A stretch of DNA of 64,000 nucleotides, taken from NCBI GenBank assembly GCA_045539335.1, contig JAZQFD010000038.1, positions 40 to 64,039 of the forward strand, written 5' to 3'. The position numbers were made by a program, and so were the translations under genes. Below the pieces are notes generated by a model. It saw nothing but the letters and a program-made list of their open reading frames with translations. It did no database searches and was not told the origin of the DNA. Source of the stretch: Eubacteriales bacterium. GTDB taxonomy: Bacteria; Bacillota; Clostridia; Oscillospirales; QAKW01. Shown here in pieces: positions 1,926 through 51,920 of the stretch (the stretch's first letter is position 1; every line of letters starts with the position of its first letter).

Positions 1926-1966
1926 TATAAATAAAAGATGCCGAAAGCCAAAGGGCTTTCGGCATC
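1926..1966 (-). terminator. Rho-independent terminator after the 2286-aa exoprotein gene
   Basis: 13-bp perfect stem GATGCCGAAAGCC/GGCTTTCGGCATC (1937-1949 / 1954-1966), followed on the minus strand by TTTTATTTAT. Confidence 0.8.
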
Positions 1967-1982
1967 TTGGTTTTATTGGGAA

Positions 1983-4900
1983 TTAACCGAGAACGGCATT
2001 CAGAACCTCTGCAGAGCAGGGAACCATGTCTCTCATGTACTCGATTACATAAGGAGTGATCAGCTCATAACCATTGGCATTGGCATGAGTACCATCCTTG
2101 GTATTCTTCTCATAGATGGTTCCGATATCGCTCATGTTGAGTGCATTATTCAGGTCCTCATTATTGTAGAGATCCAGGTAAGCAATGCCCCACTTCTCGC
2201 AGACCTCTTCGGCAGCTGCGTACATTTGAGCATGCTTGGTGGTATCTGCCTTCAGCTTATAGGTGCTCATGAAGCCGATGGCCGCATTGTCACCATAAAG
2301 CTTGATGGCCTTATAGATGGTGTACTCCAACGCACCGGTGAAGGTGGATTGATCGAAGGTAGCGGGATCGAAGGAATCGGTAATGGTTCCGATACCGGAG
2401 ATCTTGCTTGCATCGTTGGTACCACCCTGCAGCAGTACATACTGATAATCATTAGCCGTGTACTTATCCAGCAGCTTATGAATGGAATCATACTTATCGG
2501 TGGTTGCATTACAGAAGTACCATCCGCTGGTACCGGCGTTGGTAGCGGCCAAACCGGTATCACGCTGCACACGCAGAGCCCAACCGCCGGGCTGAGTCTG
2601 AGTTGCCATGGTGTCATGGCTATAGAGACCATGGTTGATGGAGTCGCCTGCGAAGAGGCCGGCTTTGTTGAACAAAGCATCTGCTACTGCAGCATTGGAA
2701 ATGCCGGTCTGAGCAGTATAGTCTGCCACACCAAAGACCTTATTCTTCATCACCAGATACTTGCCGATCATGGAGGCAGGAACGTTCACACGAACGGACT
2801 CAACGCCGGCAGGAACCTTATAAGAATAAACCTTCAGACCCTTGGCGAAGGATTCGCCCTCCGTCATATTAACGGCGTTGATCAGTTCAACAGCCTTGCC
2901 GGAAGCATCAAAGGCATAGCCCAAAACAACCTGTGCGGTAGATGCAGGACCGATGGTGAGGACATCGCCTTCGGTTACATTAATCGCATGAGTCAGATTG
3001 TAGGAAACAGAGGAGGTGATAGCACCCTTCCAATCGACGGTTTCGGAGGTATGATCCAAAACGCCATCATAGAGGTTGATACCATCCTGCTTGCTCCAGT
3101 AAGCATAATAATCTTCAGTGGTCATCTTCTGACCCAAGGAGATCAGGAAGCGATCTGCATAGTTTGCAGAAGCATTCACCATAACGGTACCGGCCTCGGG
3201 AGCGGTATAAGAATAGATCTTATAGTTGCCGCCGAAGGAGGAAACCTCGGTCACACCTGCCACGCCAATGGTATCAGCGCCGGAGGTGGCACCGGTGAAG
3301 ACCAGCATATCAGCCTGAGATGCAGCGGTGGGACCAAACCATACGGTCTCGCCTGCCTTCACCGAGAAGGCAACGCCTGCATTCTGCAGATGGCTGGTGG
3401 AATTCTTAGAGCCAACAGGCTTCAGAATGGAACCGGGATGAGCCAGATGCCAGAGGATCATCTGAGCATCCACAACGGTGAGACCGGCCTTACCATCCAG
3501 TTCGCCGGCGGCGGGCTGGGTCATGGTGGGAGTGGCCAAACCAACGGTATCCTGCATAACCAGAACGGCATCGTCAGACAATACGCTGTTGGACTTGTTC
3601 ACATCGCCCCACAGGAAGTCATCGCCTTCTACAACGATGGCGCACTTGCCGTCGGCATAAGCGGTCACATTCTTGTTCTCATCGATAACATCCATGGTAG
3701 AGATGGTAACAGCATCGGGATAATTACCAAAGCCTACCGTGTCTTTCACCTTCAGGGTCAGCACGAATGCAGCATCATTGGCAGTCACCACGGTGGGATT
3801 GGCAACGATAACCTTAAAGGGTGCAATGGGAGCGGCGGCGCCGGTATTGTAGCCCATGAAGTAACGGAACAGGCCGGTGCCCTCTACATCGATGACAGAG
3901 AACTTATCAAAATCAAGATTTACATTGAAGGTAGCACCCTTCAGACCGGGATTGTTATCAAAGCCAACTTCAACCTTTACAAAGTCGCCGGGCTTCGCAA
4001 CACCCACAGGATTCACAGTGATATTACCCAGCACCATGGCAACCACGGTGGTATCCTCGGTAAAAATCACATTGGTAATATCGCCCTTCACATCCCAATA
4101 ACCATTCAAAATGGTGGTATCGGGCTGATAGAGATTACCGTTGATATCGGTATAACCGGTGGCAACAGCATTTCCATCCTTCTCGAAGGTAATGGTATGC
4201 TTCTCCTGCTTGCCGGCCAAAACCAGAGCGGGATATCCGGTCTTACCATTCATATTCCACTTAGCGGTAGCATCCACCAAAGCGGTGTTCATGGCATCCA
4301 CGGAGGTATAACCATTATTGCCATAGGTCTTTGCATTGGTAACGGCAACGGTTCCGTTGAACAAAGCGGCCATCTTATTGTTGCCGGTGAAGACATTGGA
4401 TGCGGTAACGGTGCCGGTTCCCAAGGTGGCAACGGCGGCAACGGCATTGCCCAGAGCGCCGAACACGCCAACATTATTGATCACAACAGCAGCATCGCCT
4501 GCATTGCCGATCAGCAAACCGGTGGTGGCATTGGCATTTACGGTGTAATCCACGGCTTCACTGTTCTTCACGGTAAGCTTACCGGTTGCGGTGCCCACCA
4601 AAGCAGCAACACCGGTGGAATTCAGAACAGAAATACCATCAATGGTAACATCGCCGGCAGTAGCATTCACCAAAACGGCGGCATCTGCTACTTGGGCATT
4701 CTCGAAGTTTACATTCTTCAGAGAAGCACCGGCATAATTCATAAAGAAGGAATGATCTGCAACAAAGTTTGCTACAGTATGGCCCAAACCATCAAAGGAA
4801 GCAACCATATCCTGGATGCCGGCAAAGTTCACGCCGGAGAGATTGATATCGGCATTGAGGTAAACCGTCTGCTCAGCAGGCAGGTACATTCCCAATACGG

Positions 4901-7900
4901 CCAGATACTCCAGATCGTCGCCATTATTAATGGTGTAGCCGGGAGCATCCTCATAGAGGAATGCCTCACCGATAGCGGGTAACTTGGTAACATCCTTCAC
5001 ATATACCATCAAATCGGCCAGAGCCTTGGCATCTGCATCAACAGCAGCCTGGGTGGTATATTCGGCATTCATAACCTTTTCCACCAAAGCATCAATGGCT
5101 TCGGCATTTTCAAAGTGAGCGCTATCCTTCAAAAGGAAGTAGAAGAGATTTTCCGTCAGCTCGGTGTAATCCAAGGGATTGACGGTTGCGGTCATGTTGA
5201 TCACTCGGGTGTAGTCTGCATCTGTTACAGGCTTCACGGTCAGTACATCACCGGACAGGCTTGCCAGATCCTTGCTATCGTCCTTCAGGACATAGCCGCT
5301 GACAAAGAGAATATCCAATACGGTCTCGGCATTGCCGGCCACATAGAGATACTCGGTGGTTCCATCATTCAGAGCCACAGCAACCTTGCGAAGCTGAACA
5401 GCCTTTTGCTCATCCAAGGTATTGGGATCGGTATTGTCGGCCAGAGCCAACAGACCGTCTTTCATGGTGAACCAGTTGCGCTCCACCAGATCGGTGCGCA
5501 CATAATTCTGGTTGATCAAATATCCAACCTCACCGGTATAATAGGCATCCTCTTCCAGGATCTTACCGGCAAAGGCAGCATCTTTGCTCATCAGCTTATC
5601 GCCAACGCCGTAAACATTCTTAAGACCATTGGCTGCGCCGCCCTTTTCATAGCCACCGACTACATAGCCGGACATGCCATAGGTGCAAAGGAGAGTACCG
5701 GCACCGAAGCTATTGTAAACAGTTGCTTCACCGTTCACCAGATCGGAAACCAGATCGCCGCCGAAGATGGTGCCCACATTATAGCAGGAATCCAATACAG
5801 CACCGGCATCGGCATAACCAACCAAACCAGCCACAGGGTTCTCATAAGCAGGGGCTTTGAGAGAAACAACCGAAACATCTGCAGCATTCCAAGCCTGCAG
5901 AACTTTTGCACTGGGACCGGCATGACCAATCAAGGCAGCAACGCCATAATCATCCAGATCCACATTATAGAATACATTTACTGCACCGCTGGCCACGCCC
6001 ACATCACGAACGGTGCCCAGCAAAACACTGATCATACCAACAGGAGCGCCATTGGTGGTAACAGCAAGATTCAAATTCTCAAAAGCATGACCATGACCAT
6101 TGAGGGTACCCTCTAAAATGGGCAGCGGCATAATCTCGGCATACTCCAAATCGATGCTGTCCACCAAGTGGAGGGTGATACCGGCGAAGGTTTCATCGTC
6201 ACGACCTTCATTGATCGCCTCAAACCAGTCATCCTTGGTGCCGATGGCATAATCGGTGGTTTTGCCGAACTGCTCATACAGATCACGCTGAGAATAAGGA
6301 ACGTAATTCGGATAAGTATTGACCAACTGCAGGTCCAGATTGTTGGCCAGCTTCACCAAATCCAAAATTTCATCATTGATGATGGCAAGATCGGCGCTGG
6401 GCTGGCCTTCCAGAGGACCATAGCTATCCACAAGGTCTTTTGCATCGGCAATCGCTACCTTAGCGGGATCGCTGTCCACAAAGAGATCCAGGTCATATTT
6501 TTGCAGTTTTTCGGAAACATTATTTACGGGGAGAAGATTTACTACCGTATTATTATATTGGACAACCACTTCCTTACCGGGCATCACAAAGGTATTGGTT
6601 TCATCGGTACCGGCAGGCAAGGTGGAACGATCCATCACAAACCCTTCATAATCGGGGGCGGTTACTTTAGAACCGGGAACATAGTAGATACTGCTCAGTT
6701 CTGCAGCTTCCTCGCCTCTGATTGCCATAATGGTGCGGAAAGGAGCAGGAACCTGAGAAGCAGTACCGGGAGCCACATGACCATCCTTGGTCAAGGTGTA
6801 AGTACCCTTGCCCATTTGGGTCAGCAGGTAAGCAAACTCACCACTGCCGGAAACCTTAACCATACTATTGGCCAAGGCCAGGTCCATATTCGCATTGAGG
6901 ACGCTGGGTTTTTCGGTAGCTGCATACATCACATTGGTGATGCGCTCCATGGCAACTGCGGCGGTGCCACGAACATAGCCCACCGGGCCGGCCTTGAAGG
7001 TAGAGCCGTCTGCCATCACAACATTGGCATCGCACCAGCTATCGCTGATGTTGAATGCGGGCATCTGAGCGTTACCGATCAGACCGCCGACGGTGGATTT
7101 TTCAACCGTCTCATTGACGCTGTTCATGTAGTAAACCGTACCGGAAACCGTACAGTTCATAACGGTGGCAGAGCCATAAGCTGCACCGACCAGCAGGCCG
7201 ACGCTGACATCACGCTTGCCCTCTTCACGGGTGGAGTAATCGTTGATATCATGCCAACGGGTTACTTTTGCACCCACCAGATTGATGTTGCGAACGGTGC
7301 CGCCGTTGATCTGGCCGACCAAGCCGGAGTTACCAACGTCACCGTTGTTGGGAGAATAAACATTCCAGTTATAAATTGTGTGGCCGTTACCTTCCAGCAC
7401 CACGTTGGCAAAACCATAGTTCTGCGAGGTTTGGTTACTGGTACCGCCCAAGGGGAAGCAGTAGGGAACGCCATTTGCATCACGAGGGATATTGGGCAAG
7501 GTGACATCCTTCATGTCGATATCGGCTGTGATATCAACCTTGGTGATATCATAGTCACTACCGGGGTTGTTCCAGCCCTGCCAGATCAGACCCAGAAGGT
7601 ACAGATCGTCAGCACTGTCAACGGTGACGGTGCCAACATTGATATAACCGCCGTTGTAGGAAGGCAGGAAGCGAGCATATACATCGCTGGCGCCCATCCA
7701 TGCAGCGCTGTCGCCATTGATGTTGGCGGAGGTATGAGGCAAACGACGAACGGCAACCTCTCCGTTCTTGGAGTAGGTCAGCACAGGATAATCATATCCG
7801 TCCACATTGGCGTAAGCCACAGTATAACCGTCTACTGCACCCAGCGTGTTAACATCGGTATCGGCAGTTGCGCCTGCATTCAGTTCAGCAGCCACCGTAC

Positions 7901-8843
7901 CGTCGGCAAATGCCATGGGAGCACGGGCACGATCGGTGTTGTAGTGGTCATAACCGAGAGTGTTGCGATAGAAGCTGTTGGCAGTGCCGGCAGTTTCCAC
8001 ATCTGCAGCAGACTGAGTAGACACACGATAGAGTGCGGTATAGAGATAACCGGTTGCACCGGCATTGTAGTAAGAATAGCGCAGGTCACCGGCATTATAA
8101 CTGTTCTTAAACTCGATGGTCGCATCGGCTTTACCTGCCATACCTGCGGCAAAGTAGATACCGCTGCAGACCAGACCTAAGTTATAGCAGTTATAGAACT
8201 TACAGCCTGCACCGGTGCTTCCTGAAATACTGGAAGCACAACCGCTGGAACGGCTACCGCCGATGGTGGTGGAAGCAACCCAGCAGTTGATGAACGAAGT
8301 ATTGGCGGAGTAACCGCTGATGGCAGCAGCAAAGAAACCACCGGCTACCAGACCGCTGGCGATACCCACGTTCTTAAAGGTGGCTCCGCTACTGTTGCCA
8401 AACAGACCGGAGGATTGAACGCCATAGACAAACAGATTGGTGATGACAAAGCCATTTCCGTCGAAAGTGCCGGAGAAGGTGCTCTTCGTCTTCACGCTGA
8501 CAATGCCGATCCCTTCAAAGGGAGCGGTGCCCATGTCGATATCGGCCATCTGATAGAAGGTGTAGCCCGCAAAGGTTTTAGCCTCAAAGTTTACAAGATC
8601 AGCCAGCTTATTCATACCGGCACGGTCGGTGATCTTGTAGGCCTTGGCATCGTCTAACAGGCCGTTCTTGATATCCGGCAATGCGGACGCATCATACAGA
8701 CCGGTCTCCGACACGATCTCGCCGTTAACCACATCCGTCGTGGCTGCGCCGGCAGGCAGCGCAAAGCAAGTCAGCAGAGAGACCAGCATCATGAGCGCAC
8801 ACAACGCGGATAATGCACGAGTCTTCTTTTTGGTGAACATCAT
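1983..8843 (-). CDS. Giant secreted multidomain protein: four beta-helix (GLUG-like) modules, cohesin-like module, dockerin-like module, C-terminal SGNH/GDSL hydrolase
   Basis: 2286-aa ORF with signal peptide MMFTKKKTRALSALCALMMLVSLLTCFALPAGA. Four copies of F/L-x-G-x-F/L-D/N-G-x-G-F/H-x-I/V/F-x-N occur at about aa 123, 478, 910 and 1346. See the sub-features for the C-terminal modules. GGAGGA RBS is present. Confidence 0.85.
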   Translation of the reverse strand: MMFTKKKTRALSALCALMMLVSLLTCFALPAGAATTDVVNGEIVSETGLYDASALPDIKNGLLDDAKAYKITDRAGMNKLADLVNFEAKTFAGYTFYQMADIDMGTAPFEGIGIVSVKTKSTFSGTFDGNGFVITNLFVYGVQSSGLFGNSSGATFKNVGIASGLVAGGFFAAAISGYSANTSFINCWVASTTIGGSRSSGCASSISGSTGAGCKFYNCYNLGLVCSGIYFAAGMAGKADATIEFKNSYNAGDLRYSYYNAGATGYLYTALYRVSTQSAADVETAGTANSFYRNTLGYDHYNTDRARAPMAFADGTVAAELNAGATADTDVNTLGAVDGYTVAYANVDGYDYPVLTYSKNGEVAVRRLPHTSANINGDSAAWMGASDVYARFLPSYNGGYINVGTVTVDSADDLYLLGLIWQGWNNPGSDYDITKVDITADIDMKDVTLPNIPRDANGVPYCFPLGGTSNQTSQNYGFANVVLEGNGHTIYNWNVYSPNNGDVGNSGLVGQINGGTVRNINLVGAKVTRWHDINDYSTREEGKRDVSVGLLVGAAYGSATVMNCTVSGTVYYMNSVNETVEKSTVGGLIGNAQMPAFNISDSWCDANVVMADGSTFKAGPVGYVRGTAAVAMERITNVMYAATEKPSVLNANMDLALANSMVKVSGSGEFAYLLTQMGKGTYTLTKDGHVAPGTASQVPAPFRTIMAIRGEEAAELSSIYYVPGSKVTAPDYEGFVMDRSTLPAGTDETNTFVMPGKEVVVQYNNTVVNLLPVNNVSEKLQKYDLDLFVDSDPAKVAIADAKDLVDSYGPLEGQPSADLAIINDEILDLVKLANNLDLQLVNTYPNYVPYSQRDLYEQFGKTTDYAIGTKDDWFEAINEGRDDETFAGITLHLVDSIDLEYAEIMPLPILEGTLNGHGHAFENLNLAVTTNGAPVGMISVLLGTVRDVGVASGAVNVFYNVDLDDYGVAALIGHAGPSAKVLQAWNAADVSVVSLKAPAYENPVAGLVGYADAGAVLDSCYNVGTIFGGDLVSDLVNGEATVYNSFGAGTLLCTYGMSGYVVGGYEKGGAANGLKNVYGVGDKLMSKDAAFAGKILEEDAYYTGEVGYLINQNYVRTDLVERNWFTMKDGLLALADNTDPNTLDEQKAVQLRKVAVALNDGTTEYLYVAGNAETVLDILFVSGYVLKDDSKDLASLSGDVLTVKPVTDADYTRVINMTATVNPLDYTELTENLFYFLLKDSAHFENAEAIDALVEKVMNAEYTTQAAVDADAKALADLMVYVKDVTKLPAIGEAFLYEDAPGYTINNGDDLEYLAVLGMYLPAEQTVYLNADINLSGVNFAGIQDMVASFDGLGHTVANFVADHSFFMNYAGASLKNVNFENAQVADAAVLVNATAGDVTIDGISVLNSTGVAALVGTATGKLTVKNSEAVDYTVNANATTGLLIGNAGDAAVVINNVGVFGALGNAVAAVATLGTGTVTASNVFTGNNKMAALFNGTVAVTNAKTYGNNGYTSVDAMNTALVDATAKWNMNGKTGYPALVLAGKQEKHTITFEKDGNAVATGYTDINGNLYQPDTTILNGYWDVKGDITNVIFTEDTTVVAMVLGNITVNPVGVAKPGDFVKVEVGFDNNPGLKGATFNVNLDFDKFSVIDVEGTGLFRYFMGYNTGAAAPIAPFKVIVANPTVVTANDAAFVLTLKVKDTVGFGNYPDAVTISTMDVIDENKNVTAYADGKCAIVVEGDDFLWGDVNKSNSVLSDDAVLVMQDTVGLATPTMTQPAAGELDGKAGLTVVDAQMILWHLAHPGSILKPVGSKNSTSHLQNAGVAFSVKAGETVWFGPTAASQADMLVFTGATSGADTIGVAGVTEVSSFGGNYKIYSYTAPEAGTVMVNASANYADRFLISLGQKMTTEDYYAYWSKQDGINLYDGVLDHTSETVDWKGAITSSVSYNLTHAINVTEGDVLTIGPASTAQVVLGYAFDASGKAVELINAVNMTEGESFAKGLKVYSYKVPAGVESVRVNVPASMIGKYLVMKNKVFGVADYTAQTGISNAAVADALFNKAGLFAGDSINHGLYSHDTMATQTQPGGWALRVQRDTGLAATNAGTSGWYFCNATTDKYDSIHKLLDKYTANDYQYVLLQGGTNDASKISGIGTITDSFDPATFDQSTFTGALEYTIYKAIKLYGDNAAIGFMSTYKLKADTTKHAQMYAAAEEVCEKWGIAYLDLYNNEDLNNALNMSDIGTIYEKNTKDGTHANANGYELITPYVIEYMRDMVPCSAEVLNAVLG
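1986..2666 (-). other. SGNH/GDSL hydrolase domain of the giant protein (aa ~2060-2286)
   Basis: Ordered blocks are FAGDSINHG (block I Ser), LLQGGTNDA (block III) and DGTHANANGY (block V Asp-x-x-His). Confidence 0.7.
3438..3614 (-). other. Dockerin-like module of the giant protein (aa ~1744-1802)
   Basis: Two Ca-loop/helix segments, GDVNKSNSVLSDDAVLVMQ and GELDGKAGLTVVDAQMILWHL. The reading frame was checked against the DNA at 3600-3602 (Val1748). Confidence 0.55.
3618..4028 (-). other. Cohesin-like module of the giant protein (aa ~1606-1742)
   Basis: ITVNPVGVAKPGDFVKVEVGFDNNPGLKGATFNVNLDFDKFSVIDVEG... fits the cohesin N-terminal strand pattern (v.v..v.a.pGd.v.v.v......l.g..f.l.yD...l). Confidence 0.55.
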
Positions 8844-9010: not shown

Positions 9011-9988
9011 TCATTTAAAGCAAAAAGAGGTGACGGAGCGGAAGGGTTCCCCTGCCTTCAGGGTTGCAGAGGGGAACTGAGGCTGATTGGGAGAGTCGGG
9101 ATAGAATTGAGTTTCCAAGCAAAACCCATGACGCTTTTCATAAACCGGCTCCAAAAAGTTGCCCGAATAGAGCTGTACGCCGGGCAGATCAGTCCAGCAT
9201 TCCATTTTGATGCCGGTGGCGGGAGAGACGGCCTCTGCCGCCTTGCGGAAGCCGGTGCCTCGCACCGCAAAGGTATGGTCATAACCGCCGCCAATGAGCA
9301 GCTGCTCCTCTTTTTGGTCAATTTCTGCTCCGATCGCCTTGGGCGTATTAAAATCAAAGGGAGTGCCGGCCACAGGGCGCAGCTGCCCCAAGGGGATCAG
9401 CACATCATTTACCGGCACAAAGGCATCGGCTTCGATGGCGAGAAGATGGTTTTCCACCGAGCCGTTTCCCACACCGTTGAGATTAAAATAACTATGATTG
9501 GTGGGATTAAAGACGGTATCCCGATCCGAGCAGGCTTCATAAGTAATGGAAAGGGTGTTGTGTTCCACCCCAAAGGTCACCGAGACCTCCAGCCTTCCGG
9601 GATAGCCCTCTTCTCCGTCTGCCAAGGTATGGCAAAGGCGCAATCGGTTTTCCTGCAGGTCGGCTATCGCCCACATTTTATGGCTGAGCCCCACCTTTCC
9701 CCCATGAAGATGCCCTCGGCCTTTTTCATTACAACCCACATCATAAAGAGTGCCGTTTAAAACGAACCGACCGCCGTTAATGCGATTGGCATAGCGGCCC
9801 ACGGTGGCACCTAAATATCCACTCTTCGTCTGATAATCCTCCAAGGTGGGATGCCCCAATGCAACCTCTATGCCTTTATAGCGCACCGCTTGAACGGTGG
9901 CACCGTATGTAAGAACAGAAACTTCCAGATCGCCGTTGGTAATGGTGATTTTTTCAGCTGTGCCGAAGGGTTCTTTTCGAATACTCAT
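9011..9988 (-). CDS. galM: Aldose 1-epimerase (galactose mutarotase)
   Basis: Mutarotase-like sequence ([20 protein letters not shown]..., GRYANRI, HLHGG, NHSYFNL). The ATG at 9988 overlaps the ung stop (ATGA) and has a TGGAG RBS. The ORF-track start at 10000 is a TTG extension. Confidence 0.85.
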
Positions 9989-10641
9989 GTTAAACTCCAA
10001 TCGATAGGTTGATTTAAAAATTCATTAACTTTTTTGAAATGTCCGCAGCCGAAAAAGCCGCTATAGGCCGAAAGAGGACTTGGGTGCGCCGCCTCCAGCA
10101 CCAAATGGGCAGGATTGGTGATCCGTTCCTTTTTAGCTCGGGCATGGCTGCCCCAAAGCAAAAAGACCATGGGCTCCTGCCGCTGATTCAGCAAATCGAT
10201 GATCCGATCGGTAAAAAGCTCCCAACCCTTACCCCGATGGGAGGCGGGGGCGGAATCCCGCACGGTCAGTACGGTGTTCAGCAACAACACCCCTTGCTCT
10301 GCCCACCGGCTCAGATCCCCATGGTCGGGGATTTCAAAGCCTAATTCCGCCTGCAATTCTTTATAAATGTTCTTTAAAGACGGCGGCGGGACCACTCCTT
10401 TTTGCACCGAAAAGCAAAGGCCATGGGCCTGCCCCGGCTGATGATAAGGATCCTGCCCCAAAATCACCACTCGTACCTTTTCATAGGGGGTTTTCTTCAG
10501 GGCGTTAAAAATATCATACATGGAAGGATACACCGTGTGTTGGCGATATTCTCCCTTAAGAAATTCCCGCAATTCTTTATAGTAGGGTGCTTCAAACTGA
10601 TCCGCCAGCAGCGCATCCCAACTATTGCCCAATTGCACCAT
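9985..10641 (-). CDS. ung: Uracil-DNA glycosylase, family 1
   Basis: Motifs VILGQDPYH...[10 protein letters not shown] and the C-terminal HPSPLSA leucine-loop region. GAGGTG RBS is present. Confidence 0.92.
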
Positions 10642-12736: not shown

Positions 12737-12772
12737 AGAGCCTCCAAGGAGTTTTTCCTTGGAGGCTTCTTT
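12737..12772. terminator. Bidirectional terminator between the small ORF (+) and EEP lipoprotein P1 (-)
   Basis: 12-bp stem AGCCTCCAAGGA/TCCTTGGAGGCT flanked by an A-run and a T-run. Confidence 0.75.
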
Positions 12773-14148
12773 TATCGATACATGAAATAGGGACCGTTTT
12801 CGCCGTAATCATAGGGCTCACGCCAGTATTGAGAATAATCCGGCGTGGTGCCGATCCGCAAGCGAACCAAAACCGCCCAGTGATCCGAAATCATACCCTT
12901 GGCGATCCCCTCTTCCGGATAGTCATAGAGGGTATAGTCCATGCCATAATAATCCACGCAAACATTGGGATGGGGCTTCATGGTAATATGGTCGATCTGG
13001 GTTTTGCCGCCCAGCTCCGATTCGGGAGGAATCTGACCTTTATTAAAATGAGAGCCGTTGTAGGAGCCGTTCAAGGGGCCCAGCTCGCAAAGACCATCGT
13101 CATTAAGATACATAGCCATATCCCGCAGGTCAATGATCTTATCCCATTCGATCATGGTATTATAATCCTCTCCTCGATAGGTGGCATTATAGTCGCCGCC
13201 CACAAAGGCATAGGCATCGGGCTCCATCTTTTCAAACCGCTGATAGAACAGCTGCATGGCGCCTACGCAAGCCTCCAGATTATCGGAGCCATGATAGGTA
13301 TGCAGACAGTGGATATATACGATCTCGCCGGTTTCCTTCACCTGCAGCTTTGCCCAAGTGGAAACATCCGCACCGGCCTGACCACTGAAGCCGGGGCCCT
13401 CCTGCCAGGGGGTGGGAGAGATCCAGAAATGGCCGGTATCCAGGGTCTTAAAGGTGGCGTTTTTCCAAATGACCGGCTCACTCATCAAATGGCCGTCCAA
13501 GGTGGAGTGGCGATCATGATACACATAATCATAAACCTGCTCCAGATAGGGATCTTCATTAAAGAAGTTTTTAAAGGTGATCTTGGCTTCGTTAAAGAAA
13601 ATGACATCGGGGTCTTGTTTCTTGATCATGGTCTTCAGGCGGCGAAGACGATTGTAAATGTTATTATTGGTGCCGTCCCCCTTTTCGCCATACGCCGCAT
13701 AGCCCGCATGCTTTACATTCTGAGAGATCATGGTCAAGGCAGTACCGCTGGACTCTTTTTCCATCTTGACCCATTCTTTTTCCCCATCCTCGGGGTTCTT
13801 GGTATCCTCAGGATCTTTGGTATCCTCAGGCTCCTTAGAGTCTTCAGGGTCTTTGGTATCCTCCGGGTCTTTCGTGTCCTCAGGATCTTTGGTATCCTCG
13901 GGCTCTTTGGAGTCTTCAGGATCTTTGGTATCCTCGGGCTCTTTGGAGTCTTCAGGGTCTTTGGTATCCTCCGGGTCTTTGGTGTCCTCAGGATTCTTGG
14001 TGGGCTCCTTCTTATCGTCGCCGGACTCCTCTTCCAGCACATCGGCAACGCCGAAGCCTTCCTCCTCTTCCTTCCCCTTACAGCTTGCCAGCATGGTAAG
14101 GCTCATGGTCAATATCAGTAATAAACAAATCCATCTGAATTTCTTCAT
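12772..14148 (-). CDS. EEP-family (endonuclease/exonuclease/phosphatase fold) lipoprotein, paralog P1, with (PEDTKD)n acidic spacer
   Basis: Lipobox MKKFRWICLLLILTMSLTMLASC. EEP blocks are SQNVKH, FFNEA, CLHT, GGDYN, QIDH and SDHW. The ATG at 14148 has a GAGGAT RBS. The upstream extension to 14187 runs through the P2 terminator. Confidence 0.85.
   Translation of the reverse strand: MKKFRWICLLLILTMSLTMLASCKGKEEEEGFGVADVLEEESGDDKKEPTKNPEDTKDPEDTKDPEDSKEPEDTKDPEDSKEPEDTKDPEDTKDPEDTKDPEDSKEPEDTKDPEDTKNPEDGEKEWVKMEKESSGTALTMISQNVKHAGYAAYGEKGDGTNNNIYNRLRRLKTMIKKQDPDVIFFNEAKITFKNFFNEDPYLEQVYDYVYHDRHSTLDGHLMSEPVIWKNATFKTLDTGHFWISPTPWQEGPGFSGQAGADVSTWAKLQVKETGEIVYIHCLHTYHGSDNLEACVGAMQLFYQRFEKMEPDAYAFVGGDYNATYRGEDYNTMIEWDKIIDLRDMAMYLNDDGLCELGPLNGSYNGSHFNKGQIPPESELGGKTQIDHITMKPHPNVCVDYYGMDYTLYDYPEEGIAKGMISDHWAVLVRLRIGTTPDYSQYWREPYDYGENGPYFMYR
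13793..14008 (-). repeat. In-frame 18-bp tandem repeat (~12 units) encoding (P-E-D-T/S-K-D/E)n in P1
   Basis: The unit GGATCTTTGGTATCCTCA and close variants are read directly on the plus strand. Confidence 0.9.
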
Positions 14149-14166
14149 CGGTATATCCTCATCTTT

Positions 14167-14201
14167 TGAAAAAAGCCTGCCGATCACATCAAGCAGGCTT
14201 T
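14167..14201 (-). terminator. Terminator after P2
   Basis: AGCCTGC/GCAGGCT stem followed by T6 on the minus strand. Confidence 0.6.
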
Positions 14202-37481: not shown

Positions 37482-37522
37482 AAAAGAGCGACCAAGGGCA
37501 GCCCTTGGTCGCTCTTTTTTTA
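37482..37522. terminator. Bidirectional terminator between mgtC-like (+) and dockerin-EEP D1 (-)
   Basis: 14-bp stem AGAGCGACCAAGGG/CCCTTGGTCGCTCT flanked by A4 and T7. Confidence 0.85.
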
Positions 37523-38875
37523 TGTAATAACAAATTCGGCAAAGACGCCTAAATGATCGGAAACCCAATAGCCATTCCACTTTTCATCTGCGATGGTATA
37601 GTTGGGATTATAGCCGCCGAAATTCTCCAGTTCGTTGAGATTTTCGTCGTAGGTTTCTTCCATAACATTGTAGCGCACGCAGGTGGCATGCTGGATATCG
37701 TCGGTGAAAAAGATATCGCCACGAACCGGAATGGTGCCATCCTCTTGCACATTTCTGCCCCAGCGGGGGAAGGTGCCCTGCAACTGGCCCATCAGTTCGC
37801 CCACATCGGTAAAGGTGGTGGCCAGTTCATTGAAGAAGGGGGCATCGGATGGATTGCAATAATCCAGATTCATATCGCCCCCCATCACAATGGGGGCATC
37901 GCCGTATTTGGCAGTAAGCTCTGCCTGTTTGTTGTTCAGAAGATCTGCCACCGCCTTACCATAAAGAGTGGCTTCTGCATCGTCGAGATTGGGGCCATGG
38001 CAGTTGATGAAGTAAAACTCCTCGCCGGTATGGTTATCATGGAGCTTGACCCAAACGGCTTGGCGCTGGTTGCCGTCATAATAAAGACCTTCCTCATTGG
38101 CGGTAACCTCCGGAGCACCGAAATAGTGGCTCATAACATCGGGGGTCTCAGAAAACCAAAAATTACCTTTAACGGGATTACCATCGGCATCGGTGCAAAG
38201 GTCAAAGCGCTCATCATTCCAGAAAACGGCGGCATATTCTTCGATATAAAGCGGCATCTCCGCAGAAGAACCCGCCCCCTCCCGCTCATTCAGCGAAAGA
38301 TCCACACGGCAAACAATATGGTTTTCATACTCGCCGGCAGGGAAAATGGTCTGCTCAAACAAGGTGCGCCAGTCGGTCCAGCGATATTCCTGCAGACCGA
38401 TTACATCGGGCTGATACTTTTCCATCAAGAGGGGCATCCGTTGCATGCGGTATTTCTTAGCATCCAGCGGCCGAGAACCACCGCCGCCATGAAGAATGTT
38501 TTGGATCATAAATTTGACCCGATAATTCTCAAAATGATAAATGCCGGTCTTATCATGGGTAGCCACCACCGCATCGTCGGGAGCGGCTTCCAGTTCTACC
38601 TCCCAGCCTGCGGCCTTGCGAAGCAGCAGCACCGCATCGCTCATATCGGCGGCACCGTCCCCGGAAACAAACATGTTCTTTTCTTGCTTGACGCCGGCAT
38701 AAGATTGACCTGCCAACAGTCTTAAAGTAACGGCCGCATCCAAAATATCAATGGTCCCGTCTTGATTCACATCACCGGGGGTTATGGCAGCCGCCGAAGC
38801 AGCAGGCGCTCCCAGCCATGTTCCCATAAAGATCGCAAACGCCAGCAAAGTGGCCGTCAACTTCTTTCTTTTCAT
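37520..38875 (-). CDS. Secreted dockerin-like plus EEP-family phosphoesterase, paralog D1
   Basis: Signal peptide ...WLGAPAASAAA and dockerin-like GDVNQDGTIDILDAAVTLRLLAG. EEP blocks are IQNILH, LQEY, NCHG, GGDMN, RGDIFF and SDHL. The ATG is at 38875 (GTG at 38878 is possible). Confidence 0.85.
   Translation of the reverse strand: MKRKKLTATLLAFAIFMGTWLGAPAASAAAITPGDVNQDGTIDILDAAVTLRLLAGQSYAGVKQEKNMFVSGDGAADMSDAVLLLRKAAGWEVELEAAPDDAVVATHDKTGIYHFENYRVKFMIQNILHGGGGSRPLDAKKYRMQRMPLLMEKYQPDVIGLQEYRWTDWRTLFEQTIFPAGEYENHIVCRVDLSLNEREGAGSSAEMPLYIEEYAAVFWNDERFDLCTDADGNPVKGNFWFSETPDVMSHYFGAPEVTANEEGLYYDGNQRQAVWVKLHDNHTGEEFYFINCHGPNLDDAEATLYGKAVADLLNNKQAELTAKYGDAPIVMGGDMNLDYCNPSDAPFFNELATTFTDVGELMGQLQGTFPRWGRNVQEDGTIPVRGDIFFTDDIQHATCVRYNVMEETYDENLNELENFGGYNPNYTIADEKWNGYWVSDHLGVFAEFVIT
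38603..38776 (-). other. Dockerin-like module of D1 (aa ~35-92)
   Basis: The first repeat is canonical (D-V-N-Q-D-G-T-I-D-I-L-D plus helix). The second, VSGDGAADMSDAVLLLRKAAGW, is degenerate. Confidence 0.6.
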
Positions 38876-38897
38876 CACGATAATCCTTTCTATAAAC

Positions 38898-38928
38898 CAT
38901 TACTGCCTGCAAAAAGCAGGCAGTAATG
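38898..38928 (-). terminator. Hairpin between D2 and D1 (weak terminator)
   Basis: 13-bp stem CATTACTGCCTGC/GCAGGCAGTAATG. The minus-strand downstream tract is only GTTTAT. Confidence 0.4.
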
Positions 38929-38936
38929 AAAAAAGA

Positions 38937-40316
38937 TTAGGTTAATACAATATCGGCGCAGATTCCCAAGTGATCGGAAACCCAATAGCCGAAGCAACGG
39001 TCTTCCCCGTCCACGGTACCTTCAGGGTTAAAGCCGCCGAAGTTTTCCAGCTCATTAAGATTCTCGTCGTAGGTTTCTTCCAATACCTTATAATTGGCAA
39101 TCGATAAATCATCGTCGTTAAAGGTAAAGAAATAGTCGATACGGGCTTTAATGGTACCATCCGGCTGTACATTGCGGCTAAAATTGGGGAAGGTGCCCTG
39201 CATATTGCCGGTAGCCACTGCCAGATCCGTAAAGCCGTAGTTCACAAACTGGTCATAGGCAACTCGGTCGCAGGCCAGGGCATAATTTAAGTTAAAGTCG
39301 CCGCCCATAATAACGGGGGCTTCGCCGTACTTTTCAAAATACAACTGCACCCGATCATTGAGCAGCTTTACGGCGGGGATCAAACTCGCTTCTACACCGG
39401 CCGCCGTATCGCTGGCGTTGGGGCCGTGAACGGCATAGTAATAAAATTCTTTGCCGGTATGATTGTCGTGGAGTTTGACCCACACGCATTGGCGCTGACG
39501 GCCATCAATGTAGTTCCCTTCATCATCTTGCCCCACAGATTGGGTACAACCGAAATAAGTAGACATCACATCGGGAGTCTCGGAAAACCAGAAGTTGCCC
39601 TTAATGGCATTGCCCTCGCTATCCAGGCAAAGGTCAAACCGCTCGTCCTTCCAAAAGATTGCCATCTTTTCTTCGATGTACAAGGGCATCTCAGGGGTGG
39701 ATCCTGCGCCCTCCCGCTCGTTTAAAGAAAGGTCCACACGGCAAACGATATGGTTTTCATGAGTGCTGGCAGGGAAAATGGTATTTTCAAACAGGTTGTA
39801 CCAGTCACTCCACCGATACTCCTGCACGCTGCAAATATCCGGCTGATATTTGCCCATCAAAACCGGCATCCGCTGCATGCGGTATTTCTTTTTGTCCAAC
39901 GCTCTGGCGCCGCCGCCTGCATGAAGAATATTCTGATTAAGCACCCGCATGGAATAATCATCGTAGTAATAGAACAGTGATTCCTCATGCTGGGCAACCG
40001 TTGCGTCCGATTGGGCCGCCTGCATTTCTACATCCCATCCGGCGGCATTGCGGAGCATCAGCACCACATCGGCCATATTGGCAACGCCGTCACCACTAAC
40101 AAACATACCCTTCTCTTGCTTGGTGCCATTATAAGCGGCACCGGAAAGCAACCGCAGGCTGACGGCAACATCCAAAATATTGGATACGCCATCTCCGTTT
40201 ACATCGCCGGGTACGATGGTAGCTGCTTGAGCCGGCAATTGAGCGACGCCCAAGGTGCCAACCAGCATCACTCCCGCCAAAAGCCCGCAGATTTTTCTTT
40301 TCATGGTGCCCATCAT
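38937..40316 (-). CDS. Secreted dockerin-like plus EEP-family phosphoesterase, paralog D2
   Basis: The start at 40316 (GGAGGA RBS, MMGTMKRKICGLLAG...) avoids overlap with D3. Dockerin-like GDVNGDGVSNILDVAVSLRLLSG. EEP blocks are NQNILH, VQEY, AVHG, GGDFN, RIDYFF and SDHL. Confidence 0.85.
   Translation of the reverse strand: MMGTMKRKICGLLAGVMLVGTLGVAQLPAQAATIVPGDVNGDGVSNILDVAVSLRLLSGAAYNGTKQEKGMFVSGDGVANMADVVLMLRNAAGWDVEMQAAQSDATVAQHEESLFYYYDDYSMRVLNQNILHAGGGARALDKKKYRMQRMPVLMGKYQPDICSVQEYRWSDWYNLFENTIFPASTHENHIVCRVDLSLNEREGAGSTPEMPLYIEEKMAIFWKDERFDLCLDSEGNAIKGNFWFSETPDVMSTYFGCTQSVGQDDEGNYIDGRQRQCVWVKLHDNHTGKEFYYYAVHGPNASDTAAGVEASLIPAVKLLNDRVQLYFEKYGEAPVIMGGDFNLNYALACDRVAYDQFVNYGFTDLAVATGNMQGTFPNFSRNVQPDGTIKARIDYFFTFNDDDLSIANYKVLEETYDENLNELENFGGFNPEGTVDGEDRCFGYWVSDHLGICADIVLT
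40032..40208 (-). other. Dockerin-like module of D2
   Basis: GDVNGDGVSNILDVAVSLRLLSG ... VSGDGVANMADVVLMLRNAAGW. Confidence 0.6.
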
Positions 40317-40335
40317 GGGATCCTCCACTTTCTTC

Positions 40336-41676
40336 TTATTCAAAGACCATTTCCGAAACGATTCCATAGTGGTCTGAGCAAACACCCTCTACCGTTACCG
40401 TTTGGCCGGTGGTAGAATCGGTATAGGTTGCAGGGGCCACATCCTTCACAACCTTATAGCTGACCACATTGGGCTTGCCGTTGGTAAAGAAATAGTCGAT
40501 GCGGTTCAGTGCGGTTCCGGGCTGCCCGTTCTTGTAATCGTTATAAGCACTGAAGGTGCCGCCTTCATCGCCCATCAGTACCGCCACGTCGGTAAGGTTT
40601 TCTCCTAAGGGCACATACGCCTCAGTGGTGGGATACAGGTTAAAGTCACCACTGATTACGGCCGGATAATCTCCTGCAATGCTCTTTAAGCGATCCACTA
40701 CCAACTGAGAAGATTTGGTGCGGGATTCAATGGTCGTGGAGGCATTCAAATGAGTGTCGAAATAATAGAAGATGTCACCGGTCAAATTATCCTTCAGCTT
40801 TACCCAGATACACAGACGGTTGCGGTTATCCACATAGTAGCTGACGGTGGTATCGTTGTAGGTGCCGGTTGCAATATCACTGTCCGTCAAGGTGGTATCA
40901 TGGGGCGCAGAGTTCACATCGGGAGTGGCGCTGAGCCAATAATGTCCCTGATCCAGGCAGGTGAACCGACTGGTCTTCCAGAAAATTGCCAAACGCTCAT
41001 CGGGCTGATAGGCCTCCTCGGGAACGCCGGTACCGCCACGGGCATAAGCCAAAGCCTTCGCCTCGGTTTCGGTATCCCGAGCAGGATCGGCACGGGTTAC
41101 CACATACTTACTGTAGACCGAAGGGTCTAGAATGGTGGTCGATGCATTAGTGCCTTCCCAAGCGGCGAACCAAGTACTATGCCGATACTCCTGCACACCG
41201 ATCACATCGGGGCTATACAGGGGGATGATTTTTTGGAATCGCTGAATACGGGCGGCGCGGCTATTGGGGTCTGCATCGTTGGAATGGCGGATGTTTTGGC
41301 TCATAAATTTCACATAGGCGCCGTAGTAGAAGACATGGTTATCCTCATTCTCCTCCACGGTAACACCGGAGGGGATACCGGACAATTCCACATCCCAACC
41401 GGCGGCCTTGCGAAGCAACAGAACTGCATCGCTCATATCAGCCACATTATCACCACTGACAAAAAGGCTCTCCTTTTGAACGGTACCGCCATAAGAAGCG
41501 CCGGAATACAGCCGCAAGGAAATGGCGGCATCCAACACGTTGACCTTACCGTCTTTATTCACATCACCGGGGGTCACAGTTGCCGCATGAGAGGAAAATT
41601 GCGTCATTCCCATCATACAAACCACCGTTACCACTCCGCAAAGAGCAGAAATTTTACGAATCCATGTGTTTTTCAT
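40336..41676 (-). CDS. Secreted dockerin-like plus EEP-family phosphoesterase, paralog D3 (most divergent)
   Basis: Signal peptide ...MTQFSSHAA and dockerin-like GDVNKDGKVNVLDAAISLRLYSG. EEP blocks are SQNIRH, VQEY, DTHL, SGDFN, RIDYFF and SDHY. GGAGG RBS is present. Confidence 0.85.
   Translation of the reverse strand: MKNTWIRKISALCGVVTVVCMMGMTQFSSHAATVTPGDVNKDGKVNVLDAAISLRLYSGASYGGTVQKESLFVSGDNVADMSDAVLLLRKAAGWDVELSGIPSGVTVEENEDNHVFYYGAYVKFMSQNIRHSNDADPNSRAARIQRFQKIIPLYSPDVIGVQEYRHSTWFAAWEGTNASTTILDPSVYSKYVVTRADPARDTETEAKALAYARGGTGVPEEAYQPDERLAIFWKTSRFTCLDQGHYWLSATPDVNSAPHDTTLTDSDIATGTYNDTTVSYYVDNRNRLCIWVKLKDNLTGDIFYYFDTHLNASTTIESRTKSSQLVVDRLKSIAGDYPAVISGDFNLYPTTEAYVPLGENLTDVAVLMGDEGGTFSAYNDYKNGQPGTALNRIDYFFTNGKPNVVSYKVVKDVAPATYTDSTTGQTVTVEGVCSDHYGIVSEMVFE
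41395..41568 (-). other. Dockerin-like module of D3
   Basis: GDVNKDGKVNVLDAAISLRLYSG ... VSGDNVADMSDAVLLLRKAAGW. Confidence 0.6.
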
Positions 41677-50693: not shown

Positions 50694-51920
50694 ATGAAAC
50701 GATTACTCTGTATTATTCTTTGCGTACTGTTGATGATTCCCTCGGTAAGCGCCGCCGGCGAAATGACTCTTACGGTGGATCGTGTGCAGGGCGAAGTGGG
50801 CGAGACGGTAACCATCACCGGTCGGGTAACCAACGCCCCCAAGTGCTCTTCTTTCCGTGTGATCCTCACTTACGATAAAACCTGCCTGGAAATCACCGAT
50901 GCCAGAATCGGCAAGAGCGTTTCCGGCAACTCCTCCGTCAATAAAAATACCACCTATCAAAACAAAAGCGCCGTGGTGGCTCTTTCTGCCAGCACCGGCA
51001 CCGCTCTGAGCGGCAATGCCGAGCTTTTTGTGCTGACCGCCAAGATCATCGGCGTGCCTGCCGACGGCAGCACCTCCACCACCCTGACGGTGGCTCATCA
51101 GGAGTTCTTTGATGTGGATCTTAAGAGGGTTTCTCCTGCCTCGGTTCGTTCCGGTCTGCTGATTTATACCAAGCTGCCCTCCACCGGACCTGCAACCCCC
51201 TCCAATCCCTCTACTCCTTCCACCCCCTCTACCCCTTCCAATCCCTCTACTCCCTCTACTCCTTCTACTCCCTCTACCCCCTCTACCCCCGCTTTGCCTG
51301 AGGGCGATTGGGGTGTCAACGATAAGGGCGATGTGGTTGTAAAGGATGAAAACGGAAACGAGAATAAATTTGAGGCCGACATTCCCGAGGATCTGAAGCC
51401 CGGCGATAAGGTGGATGTAGACCTGAAGGATGAAAACGGCAATGTGGTTGGCTCTGTTACCGTGGAAAAAGACGAGCAGGGCAATGTGATCGTCAAGGAT
51501 CCCGTTTCCAAGCCCTCCACCGAGTCTACCGGCAAGCCCAACAGCAACTGGGTGGTGGCCGGCGATCAGTTTGTTTACATCGATGAAGAAGGCAATACCC
51601 ACCTTTATGATTCCTCCACCGGCGTTCCTCAGAACCCCGGCGACCGTGCTGAGATCGAATTGAAGGATGAAAACGGCAACATCATCGGAAATGTGGTGGT
51701 GGAAAAAGGGGAAGACGGCACCATCCATGTTGTGGAAGATAAAATCAATATCGCCGAAGACGGCGAGGGCAAAAAAGCCATCTGGCCTTGGATCGTCTTC
51801 CCCGCCATCTTTATTTTAGGCGGCGGCGCTGTTGTATTGTGCATCTATCTGAGCAATAAAAAGAATCAGAAACCTGCTGTAAAAAAAGACGAGGAGCCTG
51901 TTGAGGAGCCTGTCGAGTAA
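50694..51920 (+). CDS. Membrane-anchored cohesin-domain protein (signal peptide, one cohesin, Pro/Ser/Thr linker, KDENGN repeat region, C-terminal TM anchor)
   Basis: Signal peptide MKRLLCIILCVLLMIPSVSAA and cohesin pattern LTVDRVQGEVGETVTITGRVTNAPKCSSFRVILTYDKTCLEI. The linker is (PSTPSN)n. The C-terminal anchor is IWPWIVFPAIFILGGGAVVLCIYL followed by a basic-then-acidic tail. Confidence 0.8.
   Translation: MKRLLCIILCVLLMIPSVSAAGEMTLTVDRVQGEVGETVTITGRVTNAPKCSSFRVILTYDKTCLEITDARIGKSVSGNSSVNKNTTYQNKSAVVALSASTGTALSGNAELFVLTAKIIGVPADGSTSTTLTVAHQEFFDVDLKRVSPASVRSGLLIYTKLPSTGPATPSNPSTPSTPSTPSNPSTPSTPSTPSTPSTPALPEGDWGVNDKGDVVVKDENGNENKFEADIPEDLKPGDKVDVDLKDENGNVVGSVTVEKDEQGNVIVKDPVSKPSTESTGKPNSNWVVAGDQFVYIDEEGNTHLYDSSTGVPQNPGDRAEIELKDENGNIIGNVVVEKGEDGTIHVVEDKINIAEDGEGKKAIWPWIVFPAIFILGGGAVVLCIYLSNKKNQKPAVKKDEEPVEEPVE
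50757..51173 (+). other. Cohesin-like module (aa ~22-160)
   Basis: See the parent CDS. The strand pattern ends around LLIYTK. Confidence 0.6.
51196..51290 (+). repeat. 9-bp-period repeat encoding the PSNPSTPSTPSTP... linker
   Basis: CCCTCTACT/CCTTCCACC-type units read directly. Confidence 0.85.

Follow-up and report, generated by a model that had tools for sequence, protein, structure and literature searches.

The sequence analysed here, referred to as the window, is a stretch of 64,000 nucleotides from a Eubacteriales bacterium (assembly GCA_045539335.1, contig JAZQFD010000038.1). Positions 1983..8843 of its minus strand form a single open reading frame (ORF) with an ATG start, which encodes a giant protein of 2286 amino acids. 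From the N- to the C-terminus this protein consists of a signal peptide, four beta-helix modules, a cohesin module followed by a dockerin module, and a terminal cassette made of two beta-sandwich modules and an SGNH hydrolase domain. The modules are all on the minus strand, and their positions in the window are given together with the amino acid (aa) ranges.

Scanned at full length, the giant protein has a sub-threshold GLUG hit as its sole match in Pfam and no match in NCBIfam. A phmmer search of the full protein against the PDB gave no match; when single segments were used, the SGNH segment gave no match and the cohesin-dockerin segment gave weak ones. Neither the query protein nor its relative P0054 has an exact match on record. 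The domains were scored on isolated segments, with family profiles, by profile-profile comparison and in two AlphaFold models covering aa 30-1229 and aa 1595-2286.

The cohesin and dockerin modules

The cohesin module (aa ~1600-1740, 3624..4046) was detected by a Pfam scan of the segment, by a family profile, by HHalign and by AlphaFold combined with Foldseek. On the segment aa 1590-1745 the Pfam Cohesin family (PF00963) obtains 21.1 bits, below the cut-off of 24.1, with an E-value of 3.8e-4. The family profile was built from an alignment of the cohesin-dockerin segments of 13 family members (A1). Pfam Cohesin matches all 13 of them at E <= 0.01 (best 8e-15), and the profile matches solved cohesins with an E-value of 3.5e-11. 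The clade of the query and the canonical clade were aligned independently and compared with HHalign, and their cohesins match with a probability of 99.0% and an E-value of 3.7e-18. Using BLAST, the cohesin-dockerin segment of the query finds the tails of its relatives P0006 (E 1.5e-19) and P0008 (E 1.7e-13), and a profile search with the cohesin-dockerin alignment returned four proteins only.

The AlphaFold model of aa 1595-2286 has a mean predicted local distance difference test (pLDDT) score of 89.6 and a predicted template modelling (pTM) score of 0.68. In this model the cohesin region (pLDDT about 82-94) has the cohesin fold, a nine-stranded flattened beta-sandwich or jelly-roll, as judged by its structural matches. 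The top 27 Foldseek matches of the model in the PDB are all cohesins, among them the type I cohesin 3ul4_A (E 1.5e-8, TM-score 0.69) and 2jh2_A (TM-score 0.77).

The dockerin module (aa ~1742-1810, 3414..3620) follows without any linker, and this junction is conserved. It contains two divergent calcium loops, DVNKSNSVLSDD and ELDGKAGLTVVD, and was identified by the family profile, HHalign and the model. Pfam Dockerin_1 (PF00404) has no match in the query, neither in the full-length protein nor in the segment, and none in any of the five members of its clade. The same family matches 8 of the 13 aligned relatives, and the five without a match are exactly the clade of the query. The A1 profile matches solved dockerins with E-values from 1e-10 to 4e-9, and the dockerins of the query clade and the canonical clade match in HHalign with a probability of 98.5% (E 3e-15). 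The model contains the three expected helices, at aa 1756-1766, 1777-1780 and 1790-1801.

The initial annotation, made from the sequence alone, described a cohesin-like module directly abutting a dockerin-like one, and the profiles, the HHalign comparisons and the model all agree with it. Its domain coordinates were right within a few residues, here and in the rest of the protein. Among the Pfam families that it named, PF13472 exceeds its cut-off (see below), PF00963 and PF07581 stay below theirs, and PF00404 gives no match.

The dockerin is atypical, and judging from its loops its function cannot be assumed. Calcium loop 1 reads D-V-N-K-S-N-S-V-L-S-D-D; the residues D1, N3 and D12 are kept, positions 5, 6 and 9 are occupied by S, N and L, and Gly6 is lost. 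Loop 2 reads E-L-D-G-K-A-G-L-T-V-V-D, with E1, D3, K5, T9 and D12. Asp5 and Gly6 of loop 1 are lost in the three proteins that carry the cassette, and the shorter orthologue P0004 retains both. The mean pairwise identity within the five-member clade is 78% for dockerin repeat 2, 61% for repeat 1 and 52% for the cohesin, making repeat 2 the best-conserved stretch of the cohesin-dockerin region. This argues for a retained dockerin function, perhaps through a single binding face, and the dockerin appears to be under selection.

The N-terminal beta-helix region

The N-terminus is a type I signal peptide (aa 1-33, 8745..8843), read from the sequence by its basic start, its hydrophobic core and its AGA-A cleavage site (LPAGA|A). 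It is also kept in the homologues. Sequence inspection of the giant protein revealed no LPXTG motif, no SLH domain and no C-terminal membrane helix.

Four beta-helix modules follow. Module 1, of the GLUG type (aa ~55-340, 7824..8681, motif FDGNGFVI at aa 127), was assigned by AlphaFold, Foldseek and the family profile, and in the model it consists of short repeating strands with a pLDDT of about 85-95. Module 2 (aa ~400-665, 6849..7646, motif LEGNGHTI at aa 483) is supported by the model, the comparison between modules and its motif. It also contains the weak Pfam GLUG (PF07581) match, a single stretch at aa 547-570 with 19.4 bits against a cut-off of 20.5 (E 1.3e-3). The same three lines of evidence, apart from GLUG, identify module 3 (aa ~860-1110, 5514..6266, motif LNGHGHAF at aa 914). 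Module 4 (aa ~1295-1545, 4209..4961, motif FDGLGHTV at aa 1350) lies outside the structure models and was assigned by its motif and its similarity to modules 1-3 only.

In the model of aa 30-1229, small beta-rich domains and helical spacers separate the modules. One such domain (aa ~690-762, 6558..6776; strands at model residues 671-736) has weak Foldseek matches to InlB B-repeat and SraP-like modules, and its fold assignment is tentative. It is followed by an alpha-helical spacer (aa ~770-850, 6294..6536; helices at model residues 742-830).

Compared module by module, the four beta-helices align pairwise in the same register with E-values from 7e-8 to 0.07; a self-BLAST of the whole protein gave no output, and the repeats showed up in the module-by-module comparison only. 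The model (pLDDT 85.0) contains long runs of short strands, as in a right-handed beta-solenoid. Its best Foldseek matches in the PDB are 7jgj_A, 3n6z, 7uvl_P, 6xjb and 7uvk, with probabilities of 0.99-1.00 and E-values from 1.6e-3 to 1.5e-2, and the best structural match is the beta-helix domain of the IgA1 proteases from streptococci and Gemella. The family profile of the region also matches 3n6z, a "putative IgA1 protease" of B. ovatus (BACOVA_03286), with an E-value of 9.8e-8. Tailspikes and GH55 enzymes obtain probabilities of 0.02-0.12. The four modules had been proposed before, each opening with a common motif; the modules stand, and the motif occurs once in its strict form, at aa 123, and in looser forms at aa 483, 914 and 1350.

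The same module type is repeated three to four times in other giant proteins, some of which have a separate heparinase II/III-like lyase domain. In the protein studied here the modules are probably non-catalytic stalk or binding units.

The esterase cassette

The region past the dockerin, aa ~1818-2286, is one cassette formed by two beta-sandwich modules and the SGNH domain. Module A (aa ~1818-1925, 3069..3392) is all-beta in the AlphaFold model. Module B (aa ~1930-2045, 2709..3056) was identified by the model, by the family scan and by the alignment with an esterase of phage phiCP34O. Both have a pLDDT of 93-97 and a repeated sequence pattern in common. Neither module has a match in Pfam (segment aa 1800-2060), a sequence match in the PDB or, according to Foldseek, a PDB fold match at E <= 1e-3.

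The SGNH/GDSL hydrolase domain (aa ~2060-2286, 1986..2666) was recognised by Pfam, Foldseek and its conserved blocks. On the segment aa 2040-2286, Lipase_GDSL_2 (PF13472) obtains 47.5 bits against a cut-off of 32.9 (E 3.8e-12) over the whole model (positions 1-178), a match that is missed in the full-length scan. All SGNH blocks are present: GDS at aa 2066-2068, NAGTSG at 2102, GGTND at 2140 and DGTH at 2250-2253, placing the key residues at Ser2068, Gly2104, Asn2143, Asp2250 and His2253. The fold matches the GDSL lipases 4nrd_A (E 8e-6, TM-score 0.70) and 4m8k_A. The initial annotation had placed an SGNH/GDSL esterase at the end of the protein, in agreement with these results, and a region of unknown fold at aa ~1800-2050. 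This region turns out to be the two beta-sandwich modules of the cassette.

The last 479 residues match free-standing proteins with 40-65% identity over 97-100% of their length. In P0044-P0054 the cassette forms lipoproteins with a lipobox and a low-complexity tether, and in P0055 it is fused to an EEP domain (Exo_endo_phos). In a HMMER scan of 1.84 billion representative proteins the beta-sandwich modules were found in 183 clusters only. We sampled 58 relatives from these clusters to count co-occurring domains and to measure conservation: 50 contain Lipase_GDSL_2, eight a dockerin, two an EEP domain and one an SLH domain. Among the 58 proteins, conservation reaches at least 90% at each of the G-D-S, Gly, Asp and His positions. 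From these arrangements, the cassette is predicted to be an independent unit that is shown on surfaces in several ways, as a lipoprotein, by a dockerin or by SLH.

The cassette also occurs in phages. When compared by Foldseek with predicted viral structures (BFVD), it has very strong matches among the SGNH esterases of phages, including those of Clostridium (E 6e-21, about 380 aligned columns). Using tblastn, phiCP34O gp13 aligns with aa 122-446 of the cassette, i.e. module B and the SGNH domain (E 2e-8). The gene of gp13 is located among head and tail genes.

Two further settings were observed outside the window. In another metagenomic organism (L004 4885-9698 and L005 362-5175) the cassette is present as three tandem SGNH paralogues (569, 453 and 565 aa), and two EEP genes lie at a distance of about 5 kb. 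In the contig JAZPKR010000026.1 of GCA_054292625.1 (L001), P0040 is a cassette ORF of 480 aa with a GTG start and no signal peptide, which overlaps the end of a different beta-helix giant of 1879 aa by 23 nucleotides (around 7950-8030). The residues LLQPV are found in frame upstream of P0040 and resemble the linker of the fused proteins, and the pair could be a fusion split by a frameshift, whether genuine, programmed or introduced by sequencing. P0040 is followed by three EEP genes and a GxDLY SGNH gene.

Family and history of the giant protein

In the protein database the family consists of proteins of 1580-2470 aa from gut metagenomes and from metagenome-assembled genomes (MAGs) labelled Clostridia. 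P0002 and P0003 are full-length equivalents of the query with 58-59% identity. P0004 and P0005 are 47-50% identical to it and end right past the dockerin. About twenty distant members, with 27-36% identity, terminate in a cohesin followed by a canonical dockerin. In a scan of species-representative genomes a single distant relative was found, in a Clostridia MAG from roe-deer colon (28% identity).

Most of the distant members (P0006-P0023) contain Cys-rich repeats (C-x2-C … H … C, e.g. TCTEGGYTEHTCxxCGY) between the beta-helix region and the cohesin, about 150-400 aa ahead of the latter. The clade of the query is entirely without them.

P0003, P0005 and P0006 are found in the same synteny slot as the query, between an epimerase gene and an SSF-symporter gene. 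P0005 and P0006 stop after the dockerin and the symporter gene comes directly next, so that the cohesin-dockerin tail is ancestral. The cassette was joined to the C-terminus later, and this step is specific to the lineage that comprises the query, P0002 and P0003. An origin of the esterase from an adjacent gene was rejected, as the symporter gene directly follows in the orthologues without the cassette. The fusion is not an artefact of assembly or of a frameshift either, as the same architecture is kept in three independent assemblies.

The gene and its neighbourhood

A ribosome-binding site (GAAGGAGG) is located 7 nucleotides upstream of the ATG of the giant gene. Directly past its stop there is a terminator-like hairpin (1935..1968, not assigned to a strand) with a perfect stem of 15 pairs, 8 of them G-C, and a T-run on both strands. 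With its own ribosome-binding site and a hairpin straight after the stop, the giant gene looks like a transcription unit of its own. The hairpin lies between the convergent-looking end of the giant gene and the symporter region and could act as a bidirectional terminator.

The neighbouring genes have housekeeping and transport functions: a sodium:solute symporter (240-1805), an aldose 1-epimerase (9011-10000) and a uracil-DNA glycosylase family protein, among others. Two long plus-strand ORFs, 1938-4982 (1014 aa) and 6168-8180 (670 aa), were rejected as genes, being antisense to the well-supported giant gene and wholly inside it. Most likely the codon composition of the giant gene gives rise to them as shadow ORFs.

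Candidate partners in the window

A scan of all ORFs in the window with family-specific hidden Markov models (HMMs) identified one more cohesin and three more dockerins. The cohesin belongs to a protein of 408 aa (50694..51920, plus strand; Pfam Cohesin E 1.2e-11, family cohesin HMM E 5e-6). It starts with a signal peptide and the cohesin, continues with a Pro/Ser/Thr linker (PSTPSTP) and two DENGN-rich repeats, and ends in a membrane helix and a charged tail. According to this layout it is predicted to be a membrane-anchored cohesin and not a sortase- or SLH-anchored one.

The three dockerins, detected with the family dockerin HMM, belong to tandem paralogous genes (37520..41676, minus strand) that encode proteins of 452, 482 and 446 aa. 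In each of them the signal peptide is followed by an N-terminal dockerin and an EEP domain. Among the solved structures most closely related to this EEP domain is the mannosyl-6-phosphatase of B. thetaiotaomicron (4c1r). To our knowledge, dockerin-borne EEP enzymes are not typical cellulosome cargo.

A fourth EEP gene (12772-14187, minus strand) encodes a lipoprotein with the lipobox LASC and a long tether of PEDTKD repeats, a layout that resembles the lipoprotein forms of the SGNH cassette.

EEP genes are repeatedly found alongside the SGNH cassette: in the P0055 fusion, in L001, in L004/L005 and in the window itself. The window holds both a putative anchoring cohesin protein and candidate dockerin-bearing cargo, as expected for the genomic setting of an adaptor scaffoldin, and the giant protein has the architecture of such an adaptor, being secreted and having both a cohesin and a dockerin. 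We infer that the 408-aa cohesin protein and the three dockerin-EEP enzymes are partners of the giant protein.

Proposed role

The giant protein may be a secreted, non-cellulosomal adaptor that is at the same time an enzyme of a surface complex, and on the sequence evidence we give this reading about an even chance. Having no anchor of its own, the protein would plug its dockerin into the cohesin of another protein and so be held at the cell surface, and the most likely anchor would be the membrane-anchored cohesin protein at 50694-51920. Its own cohesin would be a socket for other dockerin-bearing proteins, for example the three dockerin-EEP enzymes at 37520-41676. The beta-helix modules would serve as a long stalk or as a binding arm. 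From a glycan or a cell-surface polymer the SGNH cassette would strip groups held by an ester bond, with O-acetyl or other acyl groups as the likeliest, and the recruited EEP enzymes would take phosphate-linked groups off the same substrate.

Several observations weigh against this proposal. The genes of the partners are 29-42 kb away from the giant gene and are not co-transcribed with it. The cohesin and the dockerin of the query are themselves below the Pfam cut-offs, and given the degenerate calcium loops of the dockerin, its binding may be weak, altered or absent. The substrate is a guess, and the nearest structures of the SGNH domain are uncharacterised structural-genomics entries. Finally, the conserved gene order reflects the close relatedness of the genomes and not necessarily a function.

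Taken as a whole, i.e. with the anchor holding the giant protein and the giant protein recruiting the EEP trio as phosphatases or phosphodiesterases, the locus would encode a cohesin-dockerin machine of a kind not described so far, which is non-cellulosomal and removes the non-sugar decorations of glycopolymers. That all of this holds seems rather improbable to us. If true, the SGNH and EEP enzymes would have as their joint targets polymers of other microbes that are acylated and contain phosphate, e.g. teichoic acids, capsules or phosphomannans. The recurrent pairing and fusion of the SGNH cassette with EEP, and its presence in Clostridium phage virions, would then reflect a shared target.

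An adaptor role and head-to-tail self-assembly had both been considered for this chain, and by analogy with Amy4 and ScaA/ScaB (see below) both would be allowed. In self-assembly, the cohesin would bind the dockerin of another copy to form chains or sheets of beta-helix stalks carrying esterases, as proposed for Amy4. Throughout the family a cohesin and a dockerin are found in one chain, their linkerless junction is conserved, and the cohesin of R. bromii Amy4 recognises the dockerin of Amy4 itself. However, with further dockerins and a second cohesin encoded close by, pairing with a different protein is equally possible, the specificity cannot be read from the sequence, and an anchorless polymer would still need other means to be retained at the cell. 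We consider self-assembly unlikely.

It is also possible that the pair recruits nothing, if the dockerin packs on its own cohesin to make a rigid unit of two domains or has decayed since it became internal, in which case the protein would be a free or substrate-bound esterase or adhesin. The lack of a linker between the two modules, the absence of a Pfam match for the dockerin and the fairly high pTM of the multi-domain model (0.68) would fit this, as would the loss of Asp5 and Gly6 in loop 1 of the cassette-bearing proteins and not of P0004. Against decay stands dockerin repeat 2, which at 78% identity is the most conserved stretch of the region. Known cellulosomal enzymes include some whose internal dockerins are functional. 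We regard an intramolecular or vestigial pair as quite improbable.

Least convincing, and in our view very unlikely, is that the beta-helix modules are catalytic and cleave glycans in the manner of pectate lyases or phage tailspikes, which would leave an accessory role to the cohesin-dockerin pair and the esterase. The fold is common to many polysaccharide lyases and hydrolases, and related modules occur in giant proteins with heparinase II/III-like lyase domains, but the best structural matches are 3n6z and the non-catalytic beta-helix domain of IgA1 proteases, tailspikes and GH55 hardly match, and no catalytic motif was identified in the modules. The lyase of P0024 and P0027 is a Pfam domain of its own (aa ~400-575), distinct from the GLUG modules, which start from aa ~660.

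Comparison with known systems

The literature search for GLUG, beta-helix and dockerin returned nothing on the architecture of the giant protein, and we found no paper that describes the family. In the initial annotation the combination was not recognised as a described architecture. In principle, a chain with both partners and an enzyme is already known: the union of a catalytic module, a cohesin and a dockerin is already documented in Amy4 and ScaA.

Amy4 of the R. bromii amylosome combines a catalytic module, a cohesin and a dockerin in one chain, and its cohesin binds its own dockerin and those of other enzymes. Like the giant protein, it is a secreted enzyme in a non-cellulosomal cohesin-dockerin system of gut Clostridia. 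In contrast, Amy4 is a GH13 amylase with a C-terminal dockerin and no beta-helix modules, whereas the giant protein has an SGNH esterase, is about twice as long and is only predicted to bind.

In Acetivibrio cellulolyticus, ScaB is an adaptor and ScaA bears a GH9 catalytic module. These proteins resemble the giant protein in having one or more cohesins and a dockerin in one polypeptide, linking enzymes to an anchoring cohesin protein. ScaC of R. flavefaciens is likewise an adaptor scaffoldin with a cohesin and a dockerin. Cellulosome scaffoldins have several cohesins, carbohydrate-binding modules (CBMs) and X-modules, and a role in plant cell-wall degradation. The giant protein, in contrast, has a single cohesin directly fused to a single divergent dockerin and lacks both a CBM3 and a glycoside hydrolase module, and the dockerin proteins in its neighbourhood are EEP phosphatase-like.

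Cellulosomal SGNH carbohydrate esterases that bear a dockerin, e.g. CE3 of C. thermocellum, also display an SGNH esterase by means of a dockerin. They are small and contain only the dockerin, without a cohesin, a beta-helix region or twin beta-sandwich modules. The closest likeness of the cassette is found in the virion SGNH esterases of Clostridium phages (phiCP34O gp13, CPD2, CPS1) and in the lipoproteins P0044-P0054, which have the same arrangement of beta-sandwich and SGNH domains. These are separate proteins, encoded among structural-module genes or lipid-anchored, and none has a known substrate, whereas the cassette of the giant protein is fused past a dockerin. For the N-terminal modules the best structural and profile matches are the beta-helix of IgA1 proteases (7jgj, 6xjb, 7uvk) and 3n6z. 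Unlike the IgA1 proteases, the giant protein has no M26 metalloprotease domain; for a long multi-domain query these matches are weak (E 1.6e-3 to 1.5e-2), and its Pfam GLUG score is below the cut-off.

What is new in the giant protein is the company of the cohesin-dockerin pair, i.e. four beta-helix modules of the IgA1-protease type and an SGNH cassette past the dockerin. The direct fusion of a cohesin to a divergent dockerin is new as well, as are EEP enzymes as the probable cargo. The protein is a clear case of domain accretion, in which a surface-displayed esterase cassette was joined to the end of a scaffold, past the dockerin. The twin beta-sandwich modules represent a small uncharacterised domain family, and their near-constant tie to one SGNH subfamily makes this family tractable for finding a substrate. 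Cohesin-dockerin systems are best known from cellulosomes and, lately, from amylosomes. To these the locus would add a system of uncultured herbivore-gut Clostridia, with esterase and phosphatase-like cargo rather than glycoside hydrolases and with a giant beta-helix protein as the adaptor.

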